Origin: Candidatus Woesearchaeota archaeon
Lineage (GTDB): Archaea > Nanobdellota > Nanobdellia > Pacearchaeales > GW2011-AR1
DNA length: 64,000 nucleotides
Assembly: GCA_964467035.1 (NCBI GenBank)
Contig: CAYXNX010000001.1
Span: 51,373 to 115,372, forward strand
Direction: 5' to 3'
Shown: one piece after another, positions 3,082 to 40,065 of the stretch
How positions within the stretch are numbered: position 1 is the stretch's first letter
Layout of the letters: each line of letters starts with the position of its first letter
Translations under genes and position numbers: made by a program
The notes under the pieces: generated by a model
Seen by the model: only the letters and a program-made list of their open reading frames with translations
Database searches by the model: none
What the model was told of the DNA's origin: nothing

Positions 3082-3363
3082 TCATCCCAAATTTGTAGGA
3101 TTTTGTCCTTGTTCTGATTCTTGCAATTGTTGCTCTAATTGTTGGTTTCTTGCTAAAACAACAGTTTGTTCATCATTACTCAATACAATGTAACCTTGTT
3201 GATTTACTTGCTGTATTATTGTATTAACTGCTGCTTGCTGACTTTCTATTTGTTTGTTAATAACATAACCTTGGAAAGAAGGTGCTATAACAACTACTGT
3301 TAATAACGCAAGTGTAAGAATAACAATAACACCAATTGCAACTTTAAATTTAACGTCTTTCAT
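3082..3363 (-). CDS. small membrane protein with Gln-rich coiled coil
   Basis: one TM helix then Q-rich segment. Confidence 0.35.
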   Translation of the reverse strand: MKDVKFKVAIGVIVILTLALLTVVVIAPSFQGYVINKQIESQQAAVNTIIQQVNQQGYIVLSNDEQTVVLARNQQLEQQLQESEQGQNPTNLG

Positions 3364-9935: not shown

Positions 9936-9953
9936 TTTCAAAGCGCCCCGACC
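9936..9953. repeat. attL-like 18-bp direct repeat tttcaaagcgccccgacc (copy of tRNA-Asp 3' end)
   Basis: exact match to 19792..19809. Confidence 0.7.
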
Positions 9954-9970
9954 GCACGTCATGAATTTGT

Positions 9971-11431
9971 TTAACGCTCTTTTTGTTTTAGTTTATTTAA
10001 TTTATTGAATCCCTCCAATAATTCTTTTATTTCTTTCTGAGCCTCTTCAATGATGGCTTTGCTTTCTCTATAATTAACTTCTTTCTCTTTCTCTTTCCGA
10101 TATCTATTAATTGATAAATCCCATCCTTTTTCTTTTATTTCTTCAAAAGGAACAAAGAAATGTTTTTCAAATCTGTCCTCGTTGCATTCATTGAATCTTT
10201 TTTTAAATCTCTCTAAAACATCAGGAATATCATTCTTTTCTATAGGATTTCTTTTATCATCTAAACTAAATCCATCATTTTCCATTTTGTAAAACCAAAC
10301 TTTTTCTGTAGGTTCTCCTTTTGTGAAGAATAAAACTGCAGTTGAAACTCCTGCATATGGCTTAAATACTCCCGAAGGCATAGATATAACTGCATCTAAT
10401 CGACACTCTTCTAATAACAGCTTTTTAACTGACTTATGAGCATTAGAATTACCAAATAAAACGCCTTCTGGAACAATTACAGCACATCTTCCACCAATAT
10501 TCAGAGAATTATACATAAGCTGTAAAAAAAGCAACTCTGTTTTGCTTGTGCTTATTGTTAAATCATCAGATTTCTCGCTTTGATTTATAGATCCCTTAAA
10601 TGGAGGATTTGCTAAAATTAAATCATAAATTCCTTTTTCATCATATCTTTTTGATAGAGTATCTTCTCCAATTATATTTGGATTAGTAATTCCGTGCATC
10701 ATTAAATTCATAACTGCAATTCTAACCATTGTTCTATCAATATCATAACCATAAAGGGATTCTTCATCCAATATTTTCTTTTTCTGATAAGTTAAGGTGC
10801 TAATACCATTTTTTTTATTTGTTTTTAATATGTGTTCATAAGCATTGACTAAAAATCCAGCAGTTCCACAGGCAGGATCTAAAATTCTATCACCAAATTC
10901 TGGTTTTGAGAGTTCAACCATCATCTTAATTATGTGTCTTGGAGTTCTAAATTGTCCATTCTTACCAGCAGTTGTTAATTCAGACAAAAGATATTCATAA
11001 ATATCTCCTTGTGTATCTTGGTTTTGTTCTTTTATATGTAAATCGTTGATAATATTAACTGCCTCAATTAAAAGCGAAGCAGTTGGTAATGAAAATGTAG
11101 CATCTTTCATATAATTATTATAATGTGAATTATTTCCTCCAAGGGTTCTCATAAAAAGAAATACTCTATCTCGAACATGAGGCAATATTTTGTCAGCAGG
11201 GTATTCACTCCAAACAGACCACTTACAATCTTCATTTCCCTCAAAAATAGATTTGTGTTTAATTCCCTTTAATCTTGCGTTTTGCTCTTCCCAAATGTCT
11301 CTGTCTTCAAGCTTTTTCATAAAAATTAAGTAGGATATTTGCTCAATTGCCTGAAGAGGATTACTAATTCCTCCGCTCCAAAATTTATCCCATAATTTTC
11401 TTATTTTTGATTTAAGTTCTGTGTGTAACAT
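9971..11431 (-). CDS. hsdM: type I restriction-modification system methyltransferase subunit
   Basis: N6-adenine MTase motifs DPACGTAGFL and NPPF. Confidence 0.9.
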   Translation of the reverse strand: MLHTELKSKIRKLWDKFWSGGISNPLQAIEQISYLIFMKKLEDRDIWEEQNARLKGIKHKSIFEGNEDCKWSVWSEYPADKILPHVRDRVFLFMRTLGGNNSHYNNYMKDATFSLPTASLLIEAVNIINDLHIKEQNQDTQGDIYEYLLSELTTAGKNGQFRTPRHIIKMMVELSKPEFGDRILDPACGTAGFLVNAYEHILKTNKKNGISTLTYQKKKILDEESLYGYDIDRTMVRIAVMNLMMHGITNPNIIGEDTLSKRYDEKGIYDLILANPPFKGSINQSEKSDDLTISTSKTELLFLQLMYNSLNIGGRCAVIVPEGVLFGNSNAHKSVKKLLLEECRLDAVISMPSGVFKPYAGVSTAVLFFTKGEPTEKVWFYKMENDGFSLDDKRNPIEKNDIPDVLERFKKRFNECNEDRFEKHFFVPFEEIKEKGWDLSINRYRKEKEKEVNYRESKAIIEEAQKEIKELLEGFNKLNKLKQKER

Positions 11432-11433
11432 GT

Positions 11434-12591
11434 TTATTGTGTTTCCTCTTTGTTTAAATCAGAGAGTGGAACCTTAAATACCTTTATAATACTTTTACAT
11501 TCATCTATGAGTTGTTGATAATTTTTTACTTGGATATTATGTAAATATTGGTTAAAAAGTTCAATAAAATCTTGCGGTTCTTTTCCGACTATTACCAAAC
11601 CAAACTGAATTCTATTACCTTCTTTTTTAGATTCCATGTAATGTATTAATTGAGAGATTGCTCTCCCAACTTGTGCTCCTATTGCATCTCTTTTTCTTTG
11701 TTTTACAATTGTTTTTGAAGAAGGAAGTTTCAACTCTATAAATATGTCCTTTCCTCTTTGAGATTTAAAACGGGAAACCCAAAGATCAATGTACCCTTTC
11801 TTATCTTTTCCAAATTTAACTTCAACCTCTTTTTCTAAATTAAATTGGCTAATATTTTGATATTTAAAATCAATAATCCAAATATTATTTTTAAGTTCAT
11901 CTCTTAATTCATCTTCAGAAATCTTCGGATTATTAACTTTTTCTTCAAATTCTTTTAATTTTTCTTCATAATAGGGAATATTCGTATGCAATTGGTTATG
12001 ATAATAATTCATAAACCCTGTAAATATTCTTGATGCTGTTTGTGGATCATTTTGTGGCAAATTCTCCATTATATCGTCAGGAGAAATATATTTTTTATTT
12101 TCTTTTTTAGTGTGTTTTAAATCTATCCAATCATTTATTATGTCTTCTTCTTCAGATGTGAGATCCTTAACAAGAAATAATCTTATTCGTTTATATTTAT
12201 CTGAAAAAGTTTGGATAAATTTCCTAAATCTTAATATATTAACTATTAAAATTTTTTTCCCATTTGAGAGAGTTTTATATTTAAAATTCCTGCTTATAGT
12301 TCGTGATACAATTAAATAATCAATTTCTTCTGAAACTAAATCAAATAAAGGAGTATGTGGGCCAATAATACTTGGGCCTGCTTTATTGGGCGTAAAATCG
12401 CATAAGACACTTCCAAAAGTTGTTTTACTTGTCCAATAAGGCTTAACAAAAATATTTAATTCATTTGCTATCATTCTGATAGTGGATTTAAGATATTTCT
12501 CACATCTTTGTTTAATATATTTGAGTGCAGTGGTATTGGAATACATCTTTTCAAGATCTCCTTTACGTATCCTTTGAAAATAATAACCCAT
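11434..12591 (-). CDS. uncharacterised protein with C-terminal PD-(D/E)xK nuclease-like motif (Shedu/DUF4263-like?) between hsdM and hsdS
   Basis: GYIDLWVSRFKSQRGKDIFIELKLPSSK then QVGRAISQLIHYM; position typical of defence insertions. Confidence 0.3.
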   Translation of the reverse strand: MGYYFQRIRKGDLEKMYSNTTALKYIKQRCEKYLKSTIRMIANELNIFVKPYWTSKTTFGSVLCDFTPNKAGPSIIGPHTPLFDLVSEEIDYLIVSRTISRNFKYKTLSNGKKILIVNILRFRKFIQTFSDKYKRIRLFLVKDLTSEEEDIINDWIDLKHTKKENKKYISPDDIMENLPQNDPQTASRIFTGFMNYYHNQLHTNIPYYEEKLKEFEEKVNNPKISEDELRDELKNNIWIIDFKYQNISQFNLEKEVEVKFGKDKKGYIDLWVSRFKSQRGKDIFIELKLPSSKTIVKQRKRDAIGAQVGRAISQLIHYMESKKEGNRIQFGLVIVGKEPQDFIELFNQYLHNIQVKNYQQLIDECKSIIKVFKVPLSDLNKEETQ

Positions 12592-12592
12592 C

Positions 12593-13717
12593 TTACAATT
12601 CCCCCCTAAATGCTTTACTAATAAGAGAATTAAATAATTCTTCAGAATTTTGTTTAGTTTTGTTTATTTGTTCTTTCATTTTTTCAACTTGTTTAACAAT
12701 AAAGGCAAATTTTTGTTGGAGAGGAAGGGGGGCATCTATAAAATTAATTCTGTAAACATCATTCCTGTTTAAGCCAGGTATTGCCGTAGAACTATTTAGT
12801 TTTAAGTTATAAAATTTTAATAAATAATACAAATATGCAAGGTCCATTTTCTTTAAGGGTTTTACATAATAAGTTGTATCAATAGCCCAAAAATTTTCTT
12901 TAGAATAATTAACCTCTCCTATTGACCCCTTTCTTCCTATGATTATTCCAGGACCTTCAATTAAAAATTTTGAATGTTTTCCCACAATTCCGTTAGACCC
13001 ATAAACAGGATATTTTCCCCCATCTCTTTGTTTTTCAGATAAACCTTTTCCATATGTTAATTCAAATAATTCTTTTCCTGTTTTTTCTTCAAACTCCTTA
13101 TTATAAAACATTTCATAAAAAACACTTTTCAAATATTCATCAAGTAATTCCTCTGCTTTTTCGCTTTTGTTAGTTAATTCCTCTGCTTTTTCTAAAAGTT
13201 TGACAATTCTTTCTTGTTCTTGCAAGTCTGGTTTGCCGTTGGAGAAAGGAATAGGTATTTTTATTGATTCAAATCTCCCTTTAGTTATGTGTTTCATAGT
13301 TGAGCCATGACTTTCTTTTAAGAAAAGATGAATAGTTTTTTTAACAAAATAATAAAGATATTTTTTATAAATAGATTCTTTTTTTGGAACAACCTTAAAG
13401 ATATGCTGATTTAACCAACCCTCTTCTTTATCCCATAAAAACGCATCTAATGTTGCAGACCATGAAATTAACAAGTCGCCTTTCTTAACAAGATATTTTT
13501 TATCAAAAGTTTTAGTTGTATAATTTGGATTAGTGATTGATCCAGTTAAATCCTGAATTCTAATTATTAATTTTCCTTTTGATTCCCATTCAAAAGGTTT
13601 GAATGCCCTACCATTTACAAATTGAGCTACATCTTTAAGTTCCAGTTCTTTCCATTCAGTTTTATTTTTTTGTATTTGTTGTTTCATTTTCTTTTTTCTT
13701 TTTCTGTTGAAATTCAT
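12593..13717 (-). CDS. hsdS: type I restriction-modification specificity subunit
   Basis: LKDVAQFVNGRAFKP target-recognition domain opening; coiled-coil spacer; two TRD halves. Confidence 0.8.
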   Translation of the reverse strand: MNFNRKRKKKMKQQIQKNKTEWKELELKDVAQFVNGRAFKPFEWESKGKLIIRIQDLTGSITNPNYTTKTFDKKYLVKKGDLLISWSATLDAFLWDKEEGWLNQHIFKVVPKKESIYKKYLYYFVKKTIHLFLKESHGSTMKHITKGRFESIKIPIPFSNGKPDLQEQERIVKLLEKAEELTNKSEKAEELLDEYLKSVFYEMFYNKEFEEKTGKELFELTYGKGLSEKQRDGGKYPVYGSNGIVGKHSKFLIEGPGIIIGRKGSIGEVNYSKENFWAIDTTYYVKPLKKMDLAYLYYLLKFYNLKLNSSTAIPGLNRNDVYRINFIDAPLPLQQKFAFIVKQVEKMKEQINKTKQNSEELFNSLISKAFRGEL

Positions 13718-14852
13718 AATTTCTTGTAGTTATATTTTCTATTATTTTAACAAGTTCAATGATTAACCTTTTCGCTCTTTCTTTGTCTATGTCGGTTTTT
13801 ACAATACTTCTTAATGCAGGAAGTTTTTCTGCAGTTGTGTAAGTGGGCTTAGGTTTTTCTTTTCCAGTTAAATCTACCAAATAAACAGGAACAACTACTT
13901 CAGAAATTATTTTGTGCCAATTAGAATGAATATAATTATTTCTTATAAATTCTCTTAATTGGTGTAAATACTTTTTTTCCTCTCCAGAAATATATTTCTC
14001 TACACAACAATCATTAATTAAATCAGACAATTCTCCTTCATAATGATTTCTTTTTTTATAATACCATATTTCTTTTAAAAAAGATTCAATAAAAATAGAT
14101 AACATACAAACAGAGGCATTAAAATTTCCAAACCAATAATTACTTATAGTTTCATAGTATAATGATTTATTTTCTGGTTCAAGATGAATTTTAGTTTCTA
14201 ATAGAGGTAATTCTCTAATTCTCTCTAAAATTTCTTCTTTTTTATTAAGAAAAGATTTGTAAATTTCCTCAGCCTCCTCCTTTTTTAAAAAATATTCTTC
14301 ATTCTTTATTTTTCTTTTGTTGAAATGTTCAGACCTATCCATTAGTTCATTTAATTCGTTAATTGCTTCGTCTATATGTTTTATAGCATCCGAATCTTCT
14401 TCATATCCTTCCTTTAACATTTTTTCTTTTTTGTACAAAAATCTATCTCTTTGAAAAATAAGATTTGTGTATGAAACAAATTTAGAAGGGTTTTCTACTG
14501 CATCTAAATTAAAATTATTTTCTAAATCTTGGAAATACTTAGCAAATTTGTAAATATTATTATTCTCATCTTTAAACGATTGAAATAATCTTGAATTGCC
14601 TCTATGTTCCGAAAACTCCTTACGGCTAATAATTTTTTTGTCATATAAAAAATCCAATAATGTTTGAATATCGCATTCATTTTTTATTTCTCTTGCGAGA
14701 TAATGATAGAGATTACTTTTATTATTAACAAAAAGTTTATCAAAACTCCCTTTTATTTCTTTTTTTAAATCTTCAAACTCTTTTTTAAGTTTTTCAAATT
14801 GAAATGTTATTTTTTCTGGTTCTGAAAATTTATCTTTATTCTTCTTGTCCAT
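13662..14852 (-). CDS. uncharacterised 396-aa protein with HEPN-like Rx4H motif (Abi-like) between hsdS and hsdR
   Basis: C-terminal FIRNNYIHSNWH; helical Lys/Glu-rich N-terminus. Confidence 0.3.
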   Translation of the reverse strand: MDKKNKDKFSEPEKITFQFEKLKKEFEDLKKEIKGSFDKLFVNNKSNLYHYLAREIKNECDIQTLLDFLYDKKIISRKEFSEHRGNSRLFQSFKDENNNIYKFAKYFQDLENNFNLDAVENPSKFVSYTNLIFQRDRFLYKKEKMLKEGYEEDSDAIKHIDEAINELNELMDRSEHFNKRKIKNEEYFLKKEEAEEIYKSFLNKKEEILERIRELPLLETKIHLEPENKSLYYETISNYWFGNFNASVCMLSIFIESFLKEIWYYKKRNHYEGELSDLINDCCVEKYISGEEKKYLHQLREFIRNNYIHSNWHKIISEVVVPVYLVDLTGKEKPKPTYTTAEKLPALRSIVKTDIDKERAKRLIIELVKIIENITTRNYEFQQKKKKENETTNTKK

Positions 14853-14853
14853 T

Positions 14854-15081
14854 TTAATTCTCTTTTCCTAAATTCAATATTTTAAATAAAATTCCGTATA
14901 TTCCTGAAATTTCTGCTATAAAAAAACACAGGATAAGCAAAGGATGTAACCAGCCATAGCCAGAAAGGGTTGGTATACCTTCTAAAGACTCTCTCAAAAT
15001 TTGAGTAAAAGAAAATGATAGATTTATTATTAATGCTAATATGCTACTTATTAAAATTTCAATTTGCGTTTTTTGTTCCAT
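14854..15081 (-). CDS. small two-TM membrane protein
   Basis: 75 aa, two hydrophobic helices; overlaps neighbours by 1-4 nt. Confidence 0.4.
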   Translation of the reverse strand: MEQKTQIEILISSILALIINLSFSFTQILRESLEGIPTLSGYGWLHPLLILCFFIAEISGIYGILFKILNLGKEN

Positions 15082-15716
15082 TATTGTGGTCTCCCATGAA
15101 TTTTTTCTTTAACTACTTCATCAAAAAATTTATCCACTCCAAAAGTTGATATCTTTTTATTTGTAATGAATGCTTTTGTTGAATCTTTAGAAATATAATC
15201 TACTAATGATTTTCCTGTATTATGAGTACAATGCAACAAAGCAATAAAATCTTTCTTTGGAGATTTTTCAAATTCGCAGTAATAAGCCATTTCTTTATTA
15301 TTCAACTTTATCCCGTGTCTATTTCCATGACCAATTAAATATATTACCCTTGCTTTAGGATTATTAATTATTTTTTTAAGATTTGCTCTATCAGTATTAA
15401 AATATATCTTATATGCCCAATTTTTCTTCCTAAAAAATTTAACTAATTTTTTCAAATTTTGTCTATAAATTAGTAATTTTTCAGGCATGTAATCATTACA
15501 TAAGATTATTGCAATATGATTTTTATTAGAATTTAATTCAAAATTTTTATGTAAATAATACCATTGTGGTAAGATGAATATAGAAAATGCAGGAACAAAT
15601 AAATAATTAATAATAAAAGTTCCAATTTTAAGATAAAGCCATGCAATCCCCATGTAAATAAAAAAGGCTAAAACAATTAAATGCAAATTAGTCAAAATCC
15701 AAGATAGCAAACTCAT
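15081..15716 (-). CDS. membrane-anchored minimal caspase-like (clan CD, His/Cys dyad) protein
   Basis: two N-terminal TM helices; IAIILCNDY strand, IYLIGHGNRHG (His motif), ALLHCTHNTG (DxCHSG-like Cys motif). Confidence 0.3.
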   Translation of the reverse strand: MSLLSWILTNLHLIVLAFFIYMGIAWLYLKIGTFIINYLFVPAFSIFILPQWYYLHKNFELNSNKNHIAIILCNDYMPEKLLIYRQNLKKLVKFFRKKNWAYKIYFNTDRANLKKIINNPKARVIYLIGHGNRHGIKLNNKEMAYYCEFEKSPKKDFIALLHCTHNTGKSLVDYISKDSTKAFITNKKISTFGVDKFFDEVVKEKIHGRPQ

Positions 15717-15886
15717 TCTTCATCCTCCAAATCAATCTCTTTTCTTACCATTTCTCTCAGTTTCTCATTTATAGACTTCTCCTCTTTTTCACAGAGTTTT
15801 TTTAACAGAAGAAATTCACTTTTATACAATCTTGTAGAAACAATCTTCCTCTCTTCCCCGCTTAAAGGATTATCTTTTATTACCAT
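15713..15886 (-). CDS. ribbon-helix-helix (CopG/Arc-like) protein, 57 aa
   Basis: MVIKDNPLSGEERKIVSTRLYKSEFLLLKKLCEKEEKSINEKLREMVRKEIDLEDEE; ATGA overlap with caspase-like gene; not in ORF track. Confidence 0.45.
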   Translation of the reverse strand: MVIKDNPLSGEERKIVSTRLYKSEFLLLKKLCEKEEKSINEKLREMVRKEIDLEDEE

Positions 15887-15947
15887 TAAAGATGTCAGAT
15901 AATTAGAGTATTTAAATCTTTTCTAAAAACCTGTATACACCTTTTGA

Positions 15948-16304
15948 CTAGTTATATTCCAAAATTTCTTTCTTTGGCTCCTTATGTCCAAGGCTAAGAG
16001 TTAAAGGAATTGATATATTTGCTTCTTTTCCTGCTTTTTTGAAAGTAACTATCAATAACACATAAACATGGTTTGTTTTATAATTAATTGACATTTTAAT
16101 GCTTTTAATTGATTTTAAAGTGTTCTTGTCTATGCCTAAATTTTCACTTGCATCCATTATCTCAATACCACATATAAAGTTATTGCGGTTTACGTCAAGA
16201 ACAAAATCCCCAATATCTATGGATACCCTTGCCTTTTCCCCATTATTTATAAAGAATATATCATTCTCAAAATCATAATCTATTGTTTTAATCTCTCTTG
16301 CCAT
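15948..16304 (-). CDS. DUF2283-family protein (antitoxin-like partner of DUF4258)
   Basis: YDFENDIFFINNGEKARVSIDIGDFVLDVNRNNFICGIEIMDASENLG. Confidence 0.5.
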   Translation of the reverse strand: MAREIKTIDYDFENDIFFINNGEKARVSIDIGDFVLDVNRNNFICGIEIMDASENLGIDKNTLKSIKSIKMSINYKTNHVYVLLIVTFKKAGKEANISIPLTLSLGHKEPKKEILEYN

Positions 16305-16588
16305 TTTCTATCACTATTCCAAGCACTTATAACTTTTAAATCTTTTGAAACAACGATTTCAATTATCAATACTAAAGAGTATTTTCTACTCATTTTAAAC
16401 CAAAGTTTAAATCTATCTTCTGTTTTTCCTTTTTCAATCTTTTCCAATTTATTTATTTGTGATAAAAAACTTCTCACCATGCTTTCGCTTATAGGTCTTT
16501 CACCCATTTTTTTGTAAAAATGAGGGTCAAAACTTACATTGTTTTGATTAAGATTTTCAAGGAATTTTTTAACTTCTTTCATTTCCAT
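16280..16588 (-). CDS. DUF4258-family protein (toxin-like)
   Basis: FDPHFYKKMGERPISESMVRSFL resembles DUF4258 H..ER..R.I motif; overlaps DUF2283 gene. Confidence 0.45.
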   Translation of the reverse strand: MEMKEVKKFLENLNQNNVSFDPHFYKKMGERPISESMVRSFLSQINKLEKIEKGKTEDRFKLWFKMSRKYSLVLIIEIVVSKDLKVISAWNSDRKWQERLKQ

Positions 16589-19329
16589 TTTAACCCATTA
16601 CATTTTTGAACTATTTTTTCAAGCTGTTTTTTAGTGAAAGAATCCAGAGGTCTTGCATCTGCAAGAGGATGCTCAGCAAGATTTTTTAATTCAATATGCT
16701 TTGCTCTTACAAAAACTTGTTCTAATAATCTTAAAAATTTCAATTGCTGAGAATTATAATGTTCATTTTTATCCATAACAAATTTATCAAATTCCCATTT
16801 AATCATCTCTTGAGGATCTGGCAATCCCTTTATATCTAATAATTCTCTTAAAAAAGAAATAAAATCTTTAGTCTGTTGAATATTCTCAATAGTCAAAGAA
16901 GGATTTAATTCTCTAAGTTTCTTTTCTATTCGGATAATCTCTTTTGGTGTAACTCCCTCGCCATTTTTTATTTTTTGCATAAGAGGATCGCTGTTAATAA
17001 AATAACTAAAATCTTCATCTTCTTTAACCTGCATCATTTCTTTTTCAACTTTAACTACTATATCTGGAGCATCTATTTTTAACATTTTCTTTCTTTCTTT
17101 TTCATAAAAAATCATGAGAGGGGCAATATCTCTAACTAAAAAATCAACATCTTCAAAAGTAATCTCTTCCCAGAATTGTTCTTTTTGGATTCTAATCAGA
17201 TCATCTTTTTTCTGTCTTACAGCATCAAGATTCTTATCCCAAATCGCTTCTGCCCTTTCAACTACATACTCCTGAACTTTTGCTATTTTATCATTATTCT
17301 CTGTTTTGATATAATCAAACAATTTAACACATTGGGAAATAAAACTATACACTTTTGTGTTCTCAGAAGGAGAATAAATTAACAAAGGGGCTATCTCATC
17401 TTTCAATTCTTTTATATGTTCTTTTAAATCAAATTTAGATGAAATAACTTTTTTAATAATCCCTTTCTTTTCTACCACCATAGGAGATTCTATGTCTATT
17501 TTTTTAACAGTATCTTTTATTTGCTTTTCAAGTATTCTTTTCTCTTTTTCATTAAGATTTTTTTCTAGAGTATCAACTTGTTCTAAGAATATTCTTGTTT
17601 TTGCATCTAAAGTTGGGGTTTTATGATTTAAATCTTGTAATTTGTGAACAAGTATATTTGAGTAGTCTCCAAATTTAAAATCAAGAATTAAAAAATTGTC
17701 TTTTATGTGTTGACCTTCATTATTTGTCGGAAGCCATTCTTTGTTTTCACATGCTGAGAAATTTCTGGTTCCTCTACCCAACATCTGCCAAAATCGTATA
17801 GAAGACATAACAGGTTTCACGAAAACTAAATTCATTACTTCAGGAATATCCACTCCTGTATCTAAAACACCGACAGATAAAGCAATTCTTGGACTATCTC
17901 TTTTTCCAAATCTTTTAACTTCGTCCATATAGCGTGCCCTGTCTGAAGTAATTACTTTAATTTCTTTTGCTAATGTAGGATAAAGTTTCTGGAAAAGAGC
18001 TTCTATAGATTCAGCGTGTTTAATGCTCGCACAAAAGAAAATGCTTTTACAAGGTCTTTTATCATCTGATTTATAACACCTTTCCATAAACTCTCTAATT
18101 ATTAACTCATTTGTCCTTTTATCTGTAAATAATCTTTCAAATTTAGAACCTGGAGTTTGGAAGCGTTCAGGATCTTCTTCCTGGACTTTTAACTTTTGTT
18201 GCAATTCCTTACTTAATGTTTTACCCTCTATTCCTAAAGAAAGGATTTTTGTTTCAATAATCTCTGAAACATATGGTGCTAAAACGCCATCTCTCACTGC
18301 AGAAAGATAATCATACTTATATGTTGGTTTTTTATTTTCACAACCAAATAATTCATAAGTGTTCCTCGAATCTTCAAAAGAAGGCGTGGCAGTAAGACCA
18401 ATTTTTATAGCATCAAAATACTTAAAGATATCATTATTTTTATCATAATAAGATCTATGTGCTTCATCAAAGATTATTAAGTCAAATGCTCCAGGACCAA
18501 ATTTCTCATAAAATTTTCCTCTTGGTTTTTGAGGAGACATCAGTGTTTGAACTGTAGAAACATAAAATCTTGCACTATCTGAGAAACCCTCTATGTTTAA
18601 CTCACAAACTGGAGTTTCAGGAAAGAATTTTTTAAAGCCTTTTTCTTTTGCTTGATTAGATAAAGAAATTCTATCAACTACAAATAAAACTTTTTGAACA
18701 TTTTCTGTTTTTACTAAACAATCAATTAAAGCCATAGCAACCCTTGTTTTTCCTGTTCCAGTAGCCATATTAATAAGAGCCCTTTTATGGCCTTGAAAAA
18801 TATGCTCTAAAATTACCTTAACAGCTTCAACCGCCCTTTTCCTGTCAAGGATATCTGATCTAATCTTAGAATTAACAGGATTTTTTCTTTTTTTCATCAA
18901 ACTAACAATTCTATGCAAATCTTTTTGTGAAAAAGGTAATGTGATTTTTCTTCTCCTGTCTAAATCATCTACATAATACCAACTTGTTCCATTTGTGAGA
19001 AAAATAGGGATTTTTATTTTGATTTGCTTTTCAATATCATTTCTATAAGTTCTTGCTTGGATTTCTCCTTTTTCAACGCTAACAGATGTTTTTTTTGCTT
19101 CAATAATTGCCAAAGGTGTTCTATCCTCATCTAATAATAAATAATCTATAAATCTATCAATTCCTTTTTCTATCCCTAATCCAATACCAAAATATTCCTT
19201 AGTTTGAAAATTAGATTTAACAGGATTTATTTCTTCTTTTACATAATGTCCTTTAACTTTCCATCCTGCTCTTTCTAAAATAGGATCAATTAATTTTTTT
19301 CTTGTTTCTTTCTCAGATATTTTATCCAT
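16579..19329 (-). CDS. hsdR: type I restriction enzyme R subunit
   Basis: N-terminal nuclease domain, helicase motifs NMATGTGKT and DEAH, 916 aa. Confidence 0.9.
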   Translation of the reverse strand: MDKISEKETRKKLIDPILERAGWKVKGHYVKEEINPVKSNFQTKEYFGIGLGIEKGIDRFIDYLLLDEDRTPLAIIEAKKTSVSVEKGEIQARTYRNDIEKQIKIKIPIFLTNGTSWYYVDDLDRRRKITLPFSQKDLHRIVSLMKKRKNPVNSKIRSDILDRKRAVEAVKVILEHIFQGHKRALINMATGTGKTRVAMALIDCLVKTENVQKVLFVVDRISLSNQAKEKGFKKFFPETPVCELNIEGFSDSARFYVSTVQTLMSPQKPRGKFYEKFGPGAFDLIIFDEAHRSYYDKNNDIFKYFDAIKIGLTATPSFEDSRNTYELFGCENKKPTYKYDYLSAVRDGVLAPYVSEIIETKILSLGIEGKTLSKELQQKLKVQEEDPERFQTPGSKFERLFTDKRTNELIIREFMERCYKSDDKRPCKSIFFCASIKHAESIEALFQKLYPTLAKEIKVITSDRARYMDEVKRFGKRDSPRIALSVGVLDTGVDIPEVMNLVFVKPVMSSIRFWQMLGRGTRNFSACENKEWLPTNNEGQHIKDNFLILDFKFGDYSNILVHKLQDLNHKTPTLDAKTRIFLEQVDTLEKNLNEKEKRILEKQIKDTVKKIDIESPMVVEKKGIIKKVISSKFDLKEHIKELKDEIAPLLIYSPSENTKVYSFISQCVKLFDYIKTENNDKIAKVQEYVVERAEAIWDKNLDAVRQKKDDLIRIQKEQFWEEITFEDVDFLVRDIAPLMIFYEKERKKMLKIDAPDIVVKVEKEMMQVKEDEDFSYFINSDPLMQKIKNGEGVTPKEIIRIEKKLRELNPSLTIENIQQTKDFISFLRELLDIKGLPDPQEMIKWEFDKFVMDKNEHYNSQQLKFLRLLEQVFVRAKHIELKNLAEHPLADARPLDSFTKKQLEKIVQKCNGLKWK

Positions 19330-19370
19330 ATTATTTGAAGAGAATCATGATATAAAAACTTATTTCTAAT

Positions 19371-19736
19371 TTATTTTACCCTAAATGCAGACTCAAGAAT
19401 CATTTTCCCAGAATCAGATATAATATATAGCTTTCCTTTTTTAGATTTTGGATTCAAACACTTTTTTGTTTCAGCAGACCATTCTTTTTGTTCAATCTCT
19501 GCAACAACTCTTCTTAAATCTTCTTTTGTTGCTTTTTCAAAGGGCTTATTTAGAATTAAAGCAAAAGTTCGAATATCTAACATATATCTTCCAATTTTAG
19601 CGACGCCAATTCCTTCACTTAAAAGATAATCTCTGAATTTAATACACGATTGTTTATTCTTAGCAGAAATTTTGTTATTTGACTTAATAAGCTCAACATT
19701 TCTTTCAAGCTGTCTTTTGTAGTTATGTATATCCAT
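19371..19736 (-). pseudogene. tyrosine recombinase/integrase N-terminal (SAM-like core-binding) domain only; catalytic domain missing
   Basis: 121 aa with A-T--i--fr-yl-----s--ti--yl-d-r-F pattern; ORF stops 41 nt before hsdR start. Confidence 0.5.
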
Positions 19737-19791
19737 TACTCATTTAACGTCCCAAGGGAGTAATAAAGGACATTGATGAGCGTTATCAAAA

Positions 19792-19809
19792 TTTCAAAGC
19801 GCCCCGACC
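19792..19809. repeat. attR-like 18-bp direct repeat overlapping tRNA-Asp 3' end
   Basis: exact match to 9936..9953. Confidence 0.7.
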
Positions 19810-19871
19810 GGGAATCGAACCCGGGACTCAACCGCGACAGGGTTGTATTATAACCACTTAACTACCAGGGC
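19800..19871 (-). tRNA. tRNA-Asp (anticodon GUC)
   Basis: hand-folded cloverleaf: acceptor GCCCUGG/UCGGGGC, D stem GUUA/UAAU, anticodon stem CAACC/GGUUG, loop CUGUCGC, T arm CCGGG-UUCGAUU-CCCGG. Confidence 0.85.
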
Positions 19872-19961: not shown

Positions 19962-20213
19962 TTATTTTTCTTCGTCTTCTGAATCGTCTTCTGATTCATC
20001 TTCTGAATCGTCTTCTGATTCATCTTCCGAACTGTCGTCTTCCGAATCATCTGAATTATCATCAGAGTCATCGTCTTCTTCTGAATTTTCTGATTCGTCT
20101 TCACTTACTTCGACAGCTTCACTTTCTTCTGCTTCACTTTCTGGAGTTTCATTTAAATCTGCATTTTCAGATTCTCCAGATGTTTGTTCTTGGTTTATTT
20201 GTTCGTCTTCCAT
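19962..20213 (-). CDS. highly acidic (Asp/Glu/Ser-rich) low-complexity protein
   Basis: ORF of 83 aa, DSEDES-type repeats. Confidence 0.3.
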   Translation of the reverse strand: MEDEQINQEQTSGESENADLNETPESEAEESEAVEVSEDESENSEEDDDSDDNSDDSEDDSSEDESEDDSEDESEDDSEDEEK

Positions 20214-20321: not shown

Positions 20322-20443
20322 GAGCCCATAGCTCAGTCAGGTTAGAGCGCTGGTCTTATATGGCTACAATTCATTAGGATTGTTGTTCTCTAAGGATGAC
20401 CTAAGAGAGCCAGAGGTCCCCGGTTCGAATCCGGGTGGGCTCA
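20322..20443 (+). tRNA. tRNA-Ile (anticodon UAU) with 47-nt intron at canonical 37/38 position (intron 20361..20407)
   Basis: exons fold as acceptor GAGCCCA/UGGGCUC, D stem GCUC/GAGC, anticodon stem CUGGU/GCCAG, loop CUUAUAA, T arm CCCGG-UUCGAAU-CCGGG; intron ends pair with the exon anticodon-loop region. Confidence 0.7.
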
Positions 20444-30673: not shown

Positions 30674-31359
30674 CCAGAAATCACTGACCCTCTAAAATTT
30701 TGACCTAAAAGCAACTTATCTAAATTATTCAAATTGTTTCCAACAATATAAGTTTTAATTTTTTCTTCTAAAATAATTTTAGCCGCATTTTGGTCTAAAA
30801 CAAAATGCTGTCCTGGGGAAAATTTAATAGAATTTGCCATTTTAAAAAAATCTTTCCAAGAAATTTCTTTTATAAATTTCGCACTTTTATACTTTTTTGG
30901 ATTTTTATCAAACAGCCCATCAACATTTGTAACATTAATAAATTCGCTTCCAAATTTTTTTGCAATCAAAGAAGCAGTTGAATCACTTGTTTGATTTGGC
31001 TTATACCCTAATGCACCGCAAAAAACAAAATTCTGTTTTTTCAAATATTTTTTAATTTCTTTCATTTTATGTGGAATTCCTTTTTCAGGGTCTAATTTAA
31101 AAAAATAACTCATAAATCTCGCATTAGTCCTTGTAACTGAAATACCTGCAAAACTCTGCAATTTATTACTTGCTTTAATCTCCCTTAATCCTTGAATATA
31201 CATTCTCGCCACCGAACCTCCCCCGCAAACCACCACAAACTTATAATTTTTAGAATGTTGTTTCAAAATTTTTTTAAACTTTTTAAGAAAACTTAAATTA
31301 ATTTTATTATCTTTAATAATCTGACTTCCCCCCAAACTTAAAACAATCACCTTTTTCAT
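30670..31359 (-). CDS. pyrH: uridylate (UMP) kinase, amino-acid kinase fold
   Basis: MKKVIVLSLGGS..VVVCGGGSVAR; 229 aa. Confidence 0.6.
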   Translation of the reverse strand: MKKVIVLSLGGSQIIKDNKINLSFLKKFKKILKQHSKNYKFVVVCGGGSVARMYIQGLREIKASNKLQSFAGISVTRTNARFMSYFFKLDPEKGIPHKMKEIKKYLKKQNFVFCGALGYKPNQTSDSTASLIAKKFGSEFINVTNVDGLFDKNPKKYKSAKFIKEISWKDFFKMANSIKFSPGQHFVLDQNAAKIILEEKIKTYIVGNNLNNLDKLLLGQNFRGSVISG

Positions 31360-31664
31360 AAATAAAAAAAGAAATTTATATATTTAAATTTACCTAACAG
31401 TAAACAACTTATCATCATCTACATCAAATACTCCCAATCTTACCCCTGCATCAATCCACCCATGAGCATAATTCAAAGCACCAAAACAATTAACATAATC
31501 TCCTTTTTCAAAAAAATGCCTTGCATCACTTAAATAATTCCCCGCCATCTCAATAATTTCCTTCGCCTCTTCTTTTTTAACAATATTTTCCTTCACAATT
31601 TCAAAAGCCCTTTCAGTAGTTTTAAAATATTTTTCAATCTTTTCTTTTGTTATTTTGGATTTCA
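31250..31664. repeat. 415-bp direct repeat copy 1 (pyrH 5' end plus intergenic plus 91-aa gene)
   Basis: near-identical to 32629..33043. Confidence 0.85.
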
Positions 31665-31665
31665 T
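31390..31665 (-). CDS. conserved small archaeal protein (91 aa), co-operonic with HEPN/MNT
   Basis: ATGA overlap with upstream HEPN gene; duplicate copy at 32768..33043. Confidence 0.45.
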   Translation of the reverse strand: MKSKITKEKIEKYFKTTERAFEIVKENIVKKEEAKEIIEMAGNYLSDARHFFEKGDYVNCFGALNYAHGWIDAGVRLGVFDVDDDKLFTVR

Positions 31666-32054
31666 AATTTCAGTTTTACAAATTTTTTCAATTTATTAAT
31701 TAACTCTTTCATCAAAAATTCATTCCTATCTAAATAATCTTTATCAATAAAAAATCCTTCATAAGATACCCTATTTCTTAAAACTCTAAGGTCATTAAAA
31801 AAATGATTATAACTCCTAAATTCCGAATATTTATCAACTAAATAGTCAAATAATTCTTTATGACTTAAAGTTTTGTAACCGTCAATCAACAAAACAGAGG
31901 TAGCTAATTCTTTTATAATTTCATAATAATCTGAAATAATTAAAGCAGACATTTTTTCCTTATTTTGAAGTTTAATTCTATCCTCAATTAAATTTATCAT
32001 TTTCAAAATACTTTTTGCTCTTTCTTTATCCGGAGTTATTTTTATCAAACTCAT
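31662..32054 (-). CDS. HEPN-domain protein (partner of MNT), R-N-x-x-x-Y variant motif
   Basis: RVLRNRVSYEG. Confidence 0.5.
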   Translation of the reverse strand: MSLIKITPDKERAKSILKMINLIEDRIKLQNKEKMSALIISDYYEIIKELATSVLLIDGYKTLSHKELFDYLVDKYSEFRSYNHFFNDLRVLRNRVSYEGFFIDKDYLDRNEFLMKELINKLKKFVKLKL

Positions 32055-32596
32055 TTTAATCTTACAAAACCTTTTAAAATAAATCCATTCAAAATATTGT
32101 TTTTCAATTCTTTATTTAATCTATTAATATCTGATTCAAATAAGATATTTAATTTTTTATTTAAAATATCCTCAAATTTTTTTATATTTAATTTCTTTGA
32201 TTTTGATTCTACAAAAATATCAACATCACTTTCATTTATGTCTTCACCTTTTGAATAACTTCCAAAAACAATAATAGAATTAGGCACACAGAAGTCATAT
32301 AAATAATCAACTAATTTAGATTCATACAAATTATGAATATTAAGAACTTTTTTCGCAAATAAAAATTCATTACTTTCTCTATTTGCAATATATCCAAAAA
32401 ATCTATCACCTTTCTTTTTTGATAAAATTTTTTGATTTTCTAAATTAATAAGATGTTTTTTAACAGAAGTCGGAGCTAAATTAATTTTTCGCGAAATTTC
32501 TTTAATAAAATGGATATTCAAAGGATCTTGAGAAAAAACACTAAATACTTTCCAAACACTTTGTTCAAATAAACATATTTGTTCCATAATAAACAT
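32051..32596 (-). CDS. minimal nucleotidyltransferase (MNT) with N-terminal wHTH
   Basis: IIVFGSYSKGEDINESDVDIFVE. Confidence 0.7.
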   Translation of the reverse strand: MFIMEQICLFEQSVWKVFSVFSQDPLNIHFIKEISRKINLAPTSVKKHLINLENQKILSKKKGDRFFGYIANRESNEFLFAKKVLNIHNLYESKLVDYLYDFCVPNSIIVFGSYSKGEDINESDVDIFVESKSKKLNIKKFEDILNKKLNILFESDINRLNKELKNNILNGFILKGFVRLK

Positions 32597-32628: not shown

Positions 32629-32738
32629 TAGAATGTTGTTTCAAAATTTTTTTAAACTTTTTAAGAAAACTTAAATTAATTTTATTATCTTTAATAATCT
32701 GACTTCCCCCCAAACTTAAAACAATCACCTTTTTCATA
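32629..32738 (-). pseudogene. duplicated 5' fragment of pyrH (first ~36 codons)
   Basis: inside 415-bp repeat copy 2. Confidence 0.6.
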
Positions 32739-32767
32739 AATAAAAAAAGAAATTTATATATTTAAAT

Positions 32768-33043
32768 TTACCTAACAGTAAACAACTTATCATCATCTAC
32801 ATCAAATACTCCCAATCTTACCCCTGCATCAATCCACCCATGAGCATAATTCAAAGCACCAAAACAATTAACATAATCTCCTTTTTCAAAAAAATGCCTT
32901 GCATCACTTAAATAATTCCCCGCCATCTCAATAATTTCCTTCGCCTCTTCTTTTTTAACAATATTTTCCTTCACAATTTCAAAAGCCCTTTCAGTAGTTT
33001 TAAAATATTTTTCAATCTTTTCTTTTGTTATTTTGGATTTCAA
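32768..33043 (-). CDS. second copy of the 91-aa small protein (ATG replaced by TTG)
   Basis: identical protein; start codon position reads TTG. Confidence 0.4.
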   Translation of the reverse strand: MKSKITKEKIEKYFKTTERAFEIVKENIVKKEEAKEIIEMAGNYLSDARHFFEKGDYVNCFGALNYAHGWIDAGVRLGVFDVDDDKLFTVR

Positions 33044-33699: not shown

Positions 33700-33819
33700 A
33701 CAAAATCTCAATAATTTCCTTCGCCCCTTCTTCTTTAACAATATTTTTCTTCACAATTCTCAAGATCTTTTCAGTAAGATTATAATATTTCTCTAATTTT
33801 TTGTTATTTTATCTTTCAT
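33700..33819 (-). pseudogene. degenerate third copy of the 91-aa gene 5' end (in-frame stop after 8 codons)
   Basis: similar to 31550..31665; ATGA overlap with HEPN gene. Confidence 0.35.
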
Positions 33820-34268
33820 ATTTGTTTATTAATAATCTTAATTAGTTTAGTATAAATTTGTTTTGTAAATTTAATAACTTTTTTAGCATATTCTACATCA
33901 ATTTTAGTTCCGTAATACAACATTCCATTTCTAAAAAATCTAATCTGATTCAAAAAACCAATTTCCTTATCTGTAAATTCTAAATTTTTTAAATAAGAAA
34001 CTTCGGCTTCATGAGCTTTAAAACCAGAAGCATTAAATCCATGAATAAACATTTCAGCCCTAATCAATTCCATTAAAATATCATAACATTTTTTAACATA
34101 ATCGTTAGCATTTAGCTCATTAATTCCTATTTTTTCAATTAATATAATCAAATAATTATAATTTTGTTGAGATTCATCTATTAAAAATTTTGCTCTTGAT
34201 TTATCTGAAAATTGTTTTTTAACAATTCCCAATTTAAGAAATTCCTCAAATTTTTTAACAGGTTTCAT
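33816..34268 (-). CDS. HEPN-domain protein
   Basis: FFRNGMLYYG. Confidence 0.5.
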   Translation of the reverse strand: MKPVKKFEEFLKLGIVKKQFSDKSRAKFLIDESQQNYNYLIILIEKIGINELNANDYVKKCYDILMELIRAEMFIHGFNASGFKAHEAEVSYLKNLEFTDKEIGFLNQIRFFRNGMLYYGTKIDVEYAKKVIKFTKQIYTKLIKIINKQI

Positions 34269-34813
34269 AATTCAATTCCTCCAACAAGAACAATACCATT
34301 AAGTATATTTTCCTTTAAATTTTTATTCATTTCTTTAAATGAATCATAAAAATTAAGATTAATTTCTTTACTCAAAATTTTTTCAAAATTAGACAAATCT
34401 ATCTTTTTTTTCTTTCTTCCAATAATTGCTATATCAATATCAGAATTAAATATATCATCTCCTCTTGAGTAACTTCCAAAAAGAATAATTGTTCCACCTG
34501 CAAATTCTTTTTCCAAAAAATCAACAACATTTAAAAGATATAACTGTTCTAGATTATTGGCTCTTTTTAATTGTAAAATTTTATGATTATCTCTATTTAA
34601 TTCAATGCTCCAACGTTTAGATTCTTTATCTTGGTTAATAGTTATAAACTCCTTTTTTTCTAATAAAGGAAGAGCTTTCATAACTGCTGGAGCACTTACT
34701 TTTAAAAACTTAGAAAGAGATCTTTGATTAAAGCTTTGACCTGCCCGTACAAATAAAAAATCCAAAATATCTCTTTGCAAATTAGTTAATTTATGTCTAT
34801 TAATATTTACCAT
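34265..34813 (-). CDS. MNT nucleotidyltransferase with wHTH
   Basis: IILFGSYSRGDDIFNSDIDIAII. Confidence 0.7.
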   Translation of the reverse strand: MVNINRHKLTNLQRDILDFLFVRAGQSFNQRSLSKFLKVSAPAVMKALPLLEKKEFITINQDKESKRWSIELNRDNHKILQLKRANNLEQLYLLNVVDFLEKEFAGGTIILFGSYSRGDDIFNSDIDIAIIGRKKKKIDLSNFEKILSKEINLNFYDSFKEMNKNLKENILNGIVLVGGIEL

Positions 34814-35015
34814 AGTTAATATATATTAACCAAAGTTTATAAGTTTTTCTAATTTAACGGCTTTGTTGAAAAAGTTAAGATAATTTTTGATTTTACTAAA
34901 AGTTTAGGAAACTCCTGTAGAATATAGGGTGGGTTTTTCGACGAAGTCGAAACTTGTAGTGGGAAAATGTAAAATCAAAAACAAATAAAAATTTAGATTT
35001 TCAACAAAGCCTAAT

Positions 35016-35261
35016 TTAACCGTAAACTTTCTTTCTAGTATCTATATCAAAAACAATCCACACTTCCTCTTTCAACTCTAATAAAACTCTATACCCTCCA
35101 ATTCTTAATCTAAAAGAACTTTTATAACCTTGTAATTTTTTTATATCAATTCTTTTACCATCTAATAAATCCTTTAATTTTACATTAATTAAATTTCTTA
35201 TATTAAAAGGTAATTTAAAATATTTCTTTTTTGCTTTTGAAGAGAACTCAATCTTTTTCAT
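35016..35261 (-). CDS. RelE/ParE-family toxin
   Basis: FRLRIGGYRVLLELKEEVWIVFDIDTRKKVYG. Confidence 0.6.
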   Translation of the reverse strand: MKKIEFSSKAKKKYFKLPFNIRNLINVKLKDLLDGKRIDIKKLQGYKSSFRLRIGGYRVLLELKEEVWIVFDIDTRKKVYG

Positions 35262-35481
35262 TTTCTTTCAAAATTTCTTCAAAGGAAATTGTCTCTCCTT
35301 TTTTAAATTCCTCTAAAGCTTCCTTTCTCAAACTCTCACTTTCTTTAGATAAAGGAAGAAAAGGCTCTATAAAATGCCATATAACTTCATCATAAGAATC
35401 CAGCAAAAGCTGTTCTTTAAGTTTAGTCATTGCCAAATGTGTTTCATCTTTTATTCTAAGTTGCATACAATATGAATACAT
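35248..35481 (-). CDS. cognate antitoxin (same family as 5267..5509)
   Basis: C-terminal EEFKKGETISFEEILKE. Confidence 0.5.
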   Translation of the reverse strand: MYSYCMQLRIKDETHLAMTKLKEQLLLDSYDEVIWHFIEPFLPLSKESESLRKEALEEFKKGETISFEEILKENEKD

Positions 35482-35901
35482 TTTGTATTTATAAATTTTT
35501 CTAAACTCAAAACTCTTTTTCTTAATTTCATAACTAACTTGAAGGAGAAAAATTTATGTGGCAGTTTTTCTATATCAACAAGCAGTAGAAAAAGCATTAA
35601 AGGTTTATTCTTATTTTGACACAAGGAAGTAGTTCCTCAACCTTATTCTTTAATTTATCTTGCCACCAATACTTCAATCCCTGAAAAATATTTTTCTTTT
35701 TTAAGAAAATTAACTCTTTCATCAAAAATTCATCCTACCCAAATAATCTTTATCAACAAAAAATCCTTTACAAGATATTCTATTTCTCAAACATTTAACT
35801 TTCTTCAGTATTTAAAACTCAAAACAGAAAGTTTTGATTTGCTGAATTTTTTATCAAGAAAATTTAGAATATTAAATAAAAATTTGAAAAAAACTTTATA
35901 A

Positions 35902-37314: not shown

Positions 37315-37391
37315 AATCCCCTAACAAACAAATACTTTATAAATTTTTCTATTTCAATTTATAATAATTAAAACAAAATTTCACCCAATTT

Positions 37392-39599: not shown

Positions 39600-40065
39600 T
39601 TAACATTACCTCAATTTCATCAACAATCTTCTTAGATTTATCTAACAAATTATTTAAAATTTCCTTATTAACTTCAGTTTTAATACCGTATTGAAATTCC
39701 TCTCTCAAAGTTTTTGCATCTTTTTCTATCATTTGACCAGTAGTTCTAATAAATGAAACAACTGATTTATCTAATTTTATCTCTCCAATTTCAATAAAAT
39801 GTTCAATTGCATTAATACTACACTCATAATTTTTGGATTCAAACCCTTTACTAAACAATATAATTAAAAAAGAATGATAAACTGCATAATACAATTGAGC
39901 AACTACCCAATCTTCAAATCCTCCCTCAATATTATAATTAGCCGCCTTAATATTATGTTTCGCTTTTTTAATATGTGCACTAGATAATTCTAAGTTTGGA
40001 ACTATCCTCTTCATTCTCTTCTCACTTTTCAAACACCAATTAAATTTTGATTCAATATCTTGCAT
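39592..40065 (-). CDS. HEPN-domain protein (PF05168-like)
   Basis: AQLYYAVYHSFLIILFSKG..SKNYECSINAIEHF. Confidence 0.45.
   Translation of the reverse strand: MQDIESKFNWCLKSEKRMKRIVPNLELSSAHIKKAKHNIKAANYNIEGGFEDWVVAQLYYAVYHSFLIILFSKGFESKNYECSINAIEHFIEIGEIKLDKSVVSFIRTTGQMIEKDAKTLREEFQYGIKTEVNKEILNNLLDKSKKIVDEIEVMLNE

Follow-up and report, generated by a model that had tools for sequence, protein, structure and literature searches.

We analyzed a 64-kb stretch of a contig from a Candidatus Woesearchaeota archaeon (CAYXNX010000001.1, positions 51,373 to 115,372; hereafter the window), in which two copies of a short direct repeat enclose an integrase remnant and a type I restriction-modification (RM) operon next to a tRNA-Asp(GTC) gene. 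The window is AT-rich (GC about 28%), and the contig also encodes eIF2-gamma and ribosomal protein S6e. Read from the tRNA along the minus strand, the genes are a 121-aa open reading frame (ORF), hsdR, a 102-aa gene, a DUF2283 gene, genes of 57, 211, 75 and 396 aa, hsdS, a 385-aa gene and hsdM (Table 1). We consider it very probable that this is an island, made up of an Xer-like integrase and the type I RM operon, that integrated into tRNA-Asp and whose integrase was later broken by a deletion.

The repeat, the tRNA and the integrase remnant

The 18-mer TTTCAAAGCGCCCCGACC occurs exactly twice in the window (9936–9953 and 19792–19809), at the positions given in an earlier note on this DNA, while its length has to be corrected from 18 to 19 bp since the identity runs one base further to give an exact direct repeat (TTTCAAAGCGCCCCGACCG, 19/19 identical). 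No third copy of the 18-mer was found window-wide with up to two mismatches allowed, and a second copy arose in none of 100 dinucleotide shuffles. The two copies lie 9.86 kb apart. The distal copy follows the hsdM stop codon after 17 nt, and the tRNA-proximal copy spans positions −11 to +8 relative to the tRNA end, such that it covers the final 10–11 nt of tRNA-Asp, an overlap with the 3′ end that had been noted before and that ARAGORN and Rfam both reproduce. The tRNA gene is intact, its 3′ end, at 19799/19800, being rebuilt by the repeat. Since two independently assembled Logan contigs from the same sample reproduce both island junctions with zero mismatches, the junction structure is not an assembly artefact.

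The 121-aa ORF starts 62 nt downstream of tRNA-Asp on the same strand, with the repeat 56 nt upstream of its start, and it ends 41 nt before the start of hsdR (19329), the same gap as in the earlier note. It has no Pfam match above threshold and no NCBIfam match; its alignment to the Pfam SAM-like core-binding domain is sub-threshold (E = 0.09), and its relatives do match Phage_int_SAM_1. The proposal that it is the N-terminus of a tyrosine recombinase nevertheless holds, since residues 1 to ~94–117 align at 43–64% identity with the N-termini of ~390-aa integrases of the Phage_integrase family. Family homology ends at about residue 107–117 (about 19392–19415), and the final ~10–14 residues have no match within the integrase family. 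The catalytic R, K, HxxR, W and Y residues and the CxxC..CxxC ribbon are absent from the ORF, and no other piece of the family occurs in the six frames of the 64-kb window, where tblastn returned chance-level matches only, so the catalytic domain is missing as had been suspected. First-round database homologues of the ORF were all or almost all short.

Other readings were tried and rejected. A candidate second integrase copy at 31.6–32.6 kb is a nucleotidyltransferase pair. An in-frame internal deletion that retained the original C-terminus and stop was considered because the 41-nt gap before hsdR is so close to the 40 nt found in a related locus with a complete integrase (L015, described below), and it was dropped when the tail scored z below 1 against the family C-termini. 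Alternative genetic code or recoding does not fit either, as the neighboring long genes are intact and the scattered frames of another family locus (L004) are pseudogene-like.

Between the tRNA and the ORF lies a leader with an inverted repeat around a TATA-like box, which is homologous among family elements at different tRNAs. The window leader (GTCCTTTATTA...GGAC) corresponds to the GTGGTTTAATAGCCAC motif of most relatives and stands at the same distance from the tRNA; it may be a promoter/operator of the integrase gene.

A family of tRNA-targeting integrases in DPANN archaea

We scanned one genome per species with N-terminal motifs of the family, which returned 28 loci (designated, with all further loci, by L and a number). 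Intact homologues, which the earlier note had proposed to look for, were found in 18 of the 28, comprising 17 proteins of 388–400 aa and one of 361 aa at a contig end. These share the N-terminal start MDIHNYKR... with the window ORF and carry Pfam Phage_integrase at aa ~135–298 with invariant R, K, HxxR, W and Y, followed C-terminally by a CxxC...CxxC zinc ribbon and a helical tail. The hosts are metagenome-assembled genomes of Woesearchaeota, Pacearchaeota and Nanoarchaeota, and more than 540 relatives occur in the JGI metagenomes. The same three groups supply every relative of the mobile-element genes in the window, which places its host among the DPANN archaea. The integrase is truncated in ~10 of the 28 genome loci, with N-terminal fragments of 71–156 aa that are also seen in several metagenome contigs. 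The break points vary by locus (41, 71, 90, 101, 105, 118, 132 and 156 aa), internal stops or frameshifts occur in L023, L036 and L037, and scattered catalytic pieces remain in L004; such variety marks them as pseudogenes in decay. That N-terminal pieces are in excess reflects ascertainment, the searches having started from N-terminal motifs.

The family shows a consistent integration habit. Of the 28 genome loci, 13 have a tRNA gene that precedes the integrase start on the same strand, at a spacing of ~50–70 nt in 10 of them, ~280 nt in two, and ~60 nt from an intron-bearing tRNA in the last (L026). The same was seen, at 50–330 nt, in 30 of 66 metagenome loci, these being the fetched loci with enough upstream sequence. 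The closest relatives that have an upstream tRNA sit at tRNA-Asp, among them L010 (the closest genome relative), L021 and L058, as do the more distant L059, L062, L065 and L066; the top metagenome relatives (L055–L057) have no upstream tRNA. Repeats made of the last 10–15 nt of the tRNA plus 1–3 nt bound elements of 1.9 kb (L014), 5.9 kb (L027), 7.9 kb (L033) and 10.3 kb (L022), with weaker cases in L079 and L133, while most other family elements exceed the 10 kb of flank that was fetched. Repeat lengths are 14–16 nt in several relatives and 12–19 bp overall, and the window repeat fits this series in both position and spacing. An integrase of this type thus normally sits beside a tRNA at this position and makes repeats of this kind. 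In L058 (707–850) and L059 (9853–9990) a second, degenerate copy of the tRNA 3′ end is present ~75–110 nt downstream of tRNA-Asp and before the leader, which looks like the scar of an earlier integration, that is, tandem att sites left by repeated use of the same target.

The best relatives of the full-length family are archaeal XerA proteins (PDB 4a8e at 1e-22; NCBIfam recomb_XerA_Arch at 140 bits). Unlike XerA, the family scores below the model cutoff of 220 and has ~30 additional N-terminal residues and ~90 additional C-terminal residues that include the zinc ribbon. XerA is a chromosome-dimer resolvase, whereas the family genes, placed beside tRNAs with flanking repeats and in many cases truncated, behave as those of mobile-element integrases do. 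In their integration at a tRNA 3′ end, with a short repeat that rebuilds the tRNA, these elements resemble the known tRNA-targeting islands with non-splitting, pNOB8-type tyrosine integrases, in which the integrase likewise lies by the tRNA-proximal att site, stays undivided on integration and decays through truncation. They differ from the pNOB8 type (YxxR) in being Xer-like, ~390 aa long, with the R-K-HxxR-W-Y signature and the C-terminal zinc ribbon, and from the known islands in general in their DPANN hosts and short repeats (12–19 bp). Both the Xer-like tyrosine integrase and its tRNA targeting are conventional in kind. DPANN, Woesearchaeota and Nanoarchaeota receive no mention in a 2021 review of archaeal tyrosine recombinases. 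A viral origin was rejected: the N-terminal pattern had no match in IMG/VR, and a viral search with the full-length integrase profile returned only relatives of 32–40% identity, at provirus ends.

Other elements of the family also carry defense-like cargo: L033 has AbiEii together with a reverse transcriptase, and L022 has a HEPN protein. DUF2283 genes adjoin family integrases in L006 and L037 too. A full-length family integrase on a Woesearchaeota contig (L013) has an Rfam RT-16 RNA (72 bits; 3118–3257, minus strand) at a distance of ~7 kb.

The type I RM cassette and its relatives

The cargo that the earlier note had named hsdRMS is confirmed for all three genes by Pfam and PADLOC: an HsdR with nuclease and helicase, an HsdM, and an HsdS with two target-recognition domains are present at full length in one locus, and the system would be expected to methylate host DNA and to cut unmodified incoming DNA. 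The region of ~35 nt upstream of hsdR, including a TTTTTATA box, is conserved with a related cassette (L043), and ~45 nt are similar between the window and L015. From this conservation, the box is a putative promoter that would belong to the RM cassette and not to the integrase; in the window, the conserved region lies right against the stop codon at the end of the stump. The entire cargo forms a single type I RM operon that has a conserved putative promoter of its own.

Table 1. Features of the tRNA-Asp island, in window coordinates
Feature	Position	Strand	Evidence
Distal att copy (attR in integrase orientation)	9936..9954	.	19-bp direct repeat TTTCAAAGCGCCCCGACCG; exact, 0 expected by chance
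hsdM, methyltransferase, 486 aa	9971..11431	-	Pfam N6_Mtase 1.3e-66 and HsdM_N; PADLOC MTase_I 3e-172, full length
Slot-2 gene, 385 aa, C-terminal Shedu-like (SduA_C/DUF4263) PD-(D/E)XK nuclease domain	11434..12591	-	Pfam, PADLOC
hsdS, 374 aa, two target-recognition domains	12593..13717	-	Pfam Methylase_S 2.4e-41, two stretches; PADLOC Specificity_I 2e-55
Conserved accessory gene, 396 aa, helical N-terminal part and C-terminal HEPN domain (R304-x4-H309)	13662..14852	-	
Predicted membrane protein, 75 aa, directly upstream of HEPN gene	14854..15081	-	71-73% identical homologue at same position in L041/L042
Slot-1 gene, 211 aa	15081..15716	-	N-terminal long helix (membrane anchor?) and alpha/beta domain; His130-Gly131 and Cys163 invariant
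Ribbon-helix-helix-like protein, 57 aa	15713..15886	-	Pfam RHH_1 E=0.009, sub-threshold
DUF2283 protein, 118 aa, second gene of putative toxin-antitoxin-like pair	15948..16304	-	Pfam 8.9e-8, 32.6 bits vs cutoff 23
Possible DUF4258 protein, 102 aa	16280..16588	-	Sub-threshold E=0.12, 13.1 bits vs cutoff 25, model positions 3-69/71
hsdR, type I restriction subunit, 916 aa	16579..19329	-	Pfam HSDR_N nuclease, ResIII/helicase, EcoEI_R_C; PADLOC REase_I 1.3e-92
TATA-like box TTTTTATAT of putative hsdR promoter	19350..19358	-	21-29 nt upstream of hsdR ATG
Integrase remnant, 121-aa ORF, N-terminal SAM-like/core-binding domain only	19371..19736	-	Homology to full-length family
Integrase leader, element-derived	19749..19771	-	Inverted repeat GTCC-TTTATTA-...-GGAC around TATA-like box; leader comparison at different tRNAs
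tRNA-proximal att copy (attL)	19792..19810	.	19-bp direct repeat, tRNA-Asp 3′ acceptor strand and 7-8 nt downstream
tRNA-Asp(GTC), integration target	19800..19871	-	ARAGORN; Rfam tRNA 60.1 bits, full model

Related cassettes show that the operon has a recurrent layout of hsdR, a variable slot, a conserved HEPN gene, hsdS, a second slot and hsdM. The hsdR genes of L040 and L043 are 77% identical to that of the window and their hsdM genes 84–85%, while L041 is more diverged (hsdR 51%, hsdM 66%). The 396-aa HEPN gene stands immediately upstream of hsdS in L040 and L043/44, and in L041 a 353-aa gene intervenes; the 57-aa and 75-aa genes are each conserved in subsets of the cassettes. In the window, the first slot holds the DUF4258-like/DUF2283 pair and the 211-aa protein and the second the Shedu-like nuclease. 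Elsewhere the slots hold AlbA_2/HATPase proteins and a UvrD helicase (L041), a DUF3800 protein (L043) or four unknown proteins (L040). Since the copy in L043/L044 (287–4915), from a groundwater metagenome, lies directly beside TrbC-pilin, TrbL-like and VirB4/TraC-like conjugation genes and hence on a conjugative element, the cassette travels on more than one type of mobile element. The same contigs carry a reverse transcriptase plus HTH_40 gene ~5 kb beyond hsdM, a similar reverse transcriptase being part of the cargo of L033.

What looks like the undamaged counterpart of the window island, as far as its gene content tells, is L015, a Woesearchaeota contig on which a full-length family integrase (Phage_integrase and SAM-like domains) is followed after the 40-nt gap by an hsdR that has the same domain set, including EcoEI_R_C, and is 52% identical to that of the window. 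Three small genes and hsdS follow before the contig ends. In L045 (9817–12429), a member of the 396-aa HEPN family stands alone directly after tRNA-Glu and is followed by a different tyrosine integrase of ~397 aa (MEKIDPYKHK...), after which comes a series of small genes of unknown function. L045 thus represents a further element linked to a tRNA, with a second integrase type.

The genes embedded in the window operon are identified with varying confidence. Of the DUF4258/DUF2283 pair named in the earlier note, the DUF2283 half passes its cutoff, while the DUF4258 half stays well below its own and spans nearly the whole model; the 102-aa gene overlaps hsdR by 10 nt and the DUF2283 gene by 25 nt. 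Homologues of the 57-aa protein, 73–75% identical, occupy slot 1 of L040 and L043/44, and this ribbon-helix-helix-like protein is a candidate regulator of cassette transcription. An unannotated family with 241 cluster representatives includes the 211-aa protein; its invariant H, G and C residues (GHG ... QxHC), behind the N-terminal long helix, suggest that the protein may be a membrane-anchored Cys/His hydrolase. The protein had no PADLOC match, neither the family profile nor the members matched Pfam or PDB, and a single-sequence structure model was of low confidence. The 75-aa protein has no family match. The 396-aa protein, with 28 homologues, has the four-helix fold and the Rx4-6H motif of the HEPN superfamily. 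The nuclease domain of the 385-aa protein matches SduA_C at 32.3 bits against a cutoff of 27 over model positions 3–89 of 159 only, PDDEXK_9 is weak, and PADLOC SduA gives E = 5e-4 with no stretch passing alone; no homologue of this gene occupies the same position in the related cassettes. PDB sequence searches with the 396-, 385-, 211- and 102-aa proteins returned nothing significant. The HEPN, Shedu-like, toxin-antitoxin-like and His/Cys proteins may serve as additional or backup defenses.

PrrC, of the prr locus, and RloC are HEPN anticodon nucleases linked to type I RM systems. As in the prr locus, the HEPN gene here lies inside a type I hsd operon and adjoins hsdS, a position that suggests a backup function that would fire when restriction is inhibited. 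Unlike PrrC and RloC, the 396-aa protein lacks an ABC/P-loop ATPase domain: its helical N-terminal part, modelled as long helices, matches no Pfam family and gave no ATPase or P-loop match in NCBIfam or PADLOC either, and no sequence search returned any similarity to PrrC or RloC. Unrelated defense genes between hsd genes are also known from the Vibrio cholerae genomic island VPI-2, whose type I RM cluster embeds tgvAB, a GmrSD-like type IV system with experimentally demonstrated function (PMC11411939). VPI-2 is bacterial and much larger, and the genes embedded in the window operon are of other kinds (HEPN, Shedu-like nuclease, toxin-antitoxin-like pair, uncharacterized His/Cys protein), with putative defense roles.

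Several features lie elsewhere in the window. Directly upstream of tRNA-Asp is an 83-aa ORF composed almost entirely of Asp, Glu and Ser (19962–20213, minus strand) with no family match. Between tRNA-Asp and tRNA-Glu is a ~122-nt tRNA (20322–20443, plus strand) that was detected by the Rfam covariance model only (59.8 bits), was missed by ARAGORN, and presumably contains an intron. A sequence of at least 414 bp with a 91-aa ORF is repeated exactly, in direct orientation (31251–31664 and 32629–33042), and its two copies flank a nucleotidyltransferase (NTP_transf_2) gene and its 130-aa partner (31662–32596); the arrangement looks like a toxin-antitoxin-like pair that was inserted with target duplication or captured between gene copies. 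Small overlapping gene pairs of 150/182, 157/192, 160/185 and 137/175 aa with a GC of 0.21–0.26 occupy the minus strand at 33816–45573 and resemble nucleotidyltransferase/HEPN-type pairs. Tetranucleotide usage is atypical at 45001–52500 and 57501–62500 (correlation 0.92–0.93 and 0.83, vs about 0.98 elsewhere), where very large genes are located (950, 949, 705 with a Glug motif, and 1133 aa) that probably encode repetitive surface proteins.

Probable history and mobility of the island

The course of events that would account for the locus is as follows. A small integrative element, in which an Xer-like tyrosine integrase was directly followed by a type I RM operon, would have entered the chromosome when its attP recombined with the 3′ end of the host tRNA-Asp gene, so that the 19-bp core was duplicated and came to bound the insert. 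A later deletion of ~0.8 kb would have removed the integrase codons from ~110 onward, so that of the protein the N-terminal DNA-binding domain remained and now runs on into a short unrelated tail that ends before hsdR. The cargo appears to have come through intact, with hsdR, hsdS, hsdM, the HEPN gene just upstream of hsdS and the two variable slots. The order of these events is one that we infer. Four of the five features by which a tRNA-integrated island is recognized are present: the tRNA 3′-end target, the flanking repeat, the integrase remnant by the tRNA, and deviant composition.

The last of these is a matter of strand bias. The window has a very strong strand asymmetry, its minus strand being G-rich whatever the gene orientation: GC skew at third codon positions (GC3 skew) is +0.68 in the other minus-strand genes and −0.36 in plus-strand genes. 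The mean over the nine island genes, which all lie on the minus strand, is +0.25, near the midpoint of the two host groups (Mann-Whitney p = 3e-5 against minus-strand and p = 1.5e-3 against plus-strand genes). The absence of the host bias is consistent with a comparatively recent arrival, to which the complete identity of the repeats also points, if weakly. The comparison with the flanks that the earlier note had suggested thus gave a mixed answer, with a signal in GC3 skew and none in GC content or strand-symmetric tetranucleotide usage.

Those two measures, in which island and host do not differ, count against an integrated island, and since they do not separate the two, the donor would have been compositionally similar to the host. 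Other points tell in the same direction. An empty tRNA-Asp site was not found, no close relative of the host being available; the flanking LOR gene has only two homologues, of 65–68% identity, on 1.5-kb contigs with non-syntenic neighbors; and the predicted attB junction (33 nt, exact) had no match in the JGI metagenomes. Related RM cassettes stand without this integrase or a tRNA in L040, L041 and L043/44 (77–85% identity in L040 and L043/44), so that the cassette could have joined the integrase separately, and a type I RM system is present in only 1 of 108 other integrase-family loci. Exact-sequence look-ups of the window proteins returned the same sample only.

Host-like composition and the missing empty site would also be expected if there were no island at all, the 19-bp repeat having arisen by chance or from a stray piece of tRNA, with the RM operon as an ancestral chromosomal locus. 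We give this next to no credence, as the shuffles never produced a second repeat copy, the repeat is placed exactly as in other members of the integrase family with the remnant where it is expected, and all nine island genes depart from the host in GC3 skew. A composite history draws on the cassettes that lack the integrase. There, the repeat and stump would be the scar of an older element, and the RM cassette would have arrived separately, replacing everything from integrase codon ~110 to attR, for example by homologous or illegitimate recombination from a conjugative element. The same cassette type without this integrase in L040 and L041, and beside type IV secretion system genes in L043/44, speaks for it, as do the cassette promoter abutting the stump and the unmatched last ~10–14 residues of the stump. 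Against it stand L015, in which an intact family integrase precedes hsdR by nearly the same gap as in the window, and the close fit of the cassette between stump and attR, where 17 nt remain at the distal end, for which a single internal deletion is the simpler route. On balance we find the composite history improbable.

Two further alternatives concern the fragment itself. Self-splitting integrases of the SSV type are known in archaea (PMC7253208, PMC8371274), and in an archaeal host, and with most database homologues of the fragment being short, the 121-aa ORF might be read as the Int(N) part of a gene with an internal attP, the C-terminal part being at the other end. The geometry and the intact integrated relatives rule this out for practical purposes: the repeat lies upstream of the ORF start, outside the gene; the ORF reads from att into the element, whereas an SSV-type Int(N) reads outward through att; the distal end has no integrase-like coding, with the hsdM stop 17 nt from the repeat; full-length members integrated with flanking repeats are intact (L022, L033); and the catalytic signature is HxxR, as opposed to KxxR of the SSV1 type (PMC8371274). 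The stump could instead have been retained as a small DNA-binding protein, expressed from the conserved palindromic leader, that might occupy att sites, keep related elements from integrating or stabilize the island. In favor of this, the 121 codons run without interruption and follow a conserved TATA/inverted-repeat leader, and N-terminal fragments of 71–156 aa recur in ~10 of the 28 genomes and several metagenome contigs. This recurrence is, though, what searches with N-terminal motifs would produce by ascertainment, and the break points differ between loci, some copies having internal stops or frameshifts. We judge retention to be slightly less probable even than the composite history.

For an integrated island disabled by deletion, the consequences for mobility follow from the stump. 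A tyrosine recombinase without its catalytic domain can neither cut nor rejoin DNA, and therefore the island should be unable to excise itself. The term 'fixed' in the earlier note would hold only in the sense of being unable to self-excise or integrate, within the 64 kb that are visible. Since attL and attR are both intact, a related integrase of the same clade could still mobilize the island in trans.

The island is real but of an ordinary kind, a textbook type in an under-studied DPANN host. A broader reading, which we put forward tentatively and regard as doubtful when all its parts are taken together, is that the integrase and the type I RM operon form a self-contained mobile lineage of DPANN archaea with a defense operon as its sole cargo, in which the operon is a gene-capture platform that moves between tRNA-integrating and conjugative elements and the HEPN protein is a PrrC-like backup that fires on RM inhibition. 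The platform would then have a core of hsdR, the ribbon-helix-helix regulator, the 75-aa membrane protein, the HEPN gene, hsdS and hsdM, with two slots that take up different defense genes in each copy. None of these findings overturns current understanding. Of greater use than the island are two by-products: a large family of tRNA-targeting DPANN integrases outside the 2021 review, and a recurrent type I RM architecture with a HEPN partner and two slots that can be mined for archaeal defense genes, this modular cassette with its conserved HEPN partner being the most interesting. The island for its part documents how a defense module is gained and retained in an ultra-small, host-dependent archaeon, where a tRNA integrase with short att sites brings in the cargo and subsequent decay of that integrase locks it in place.

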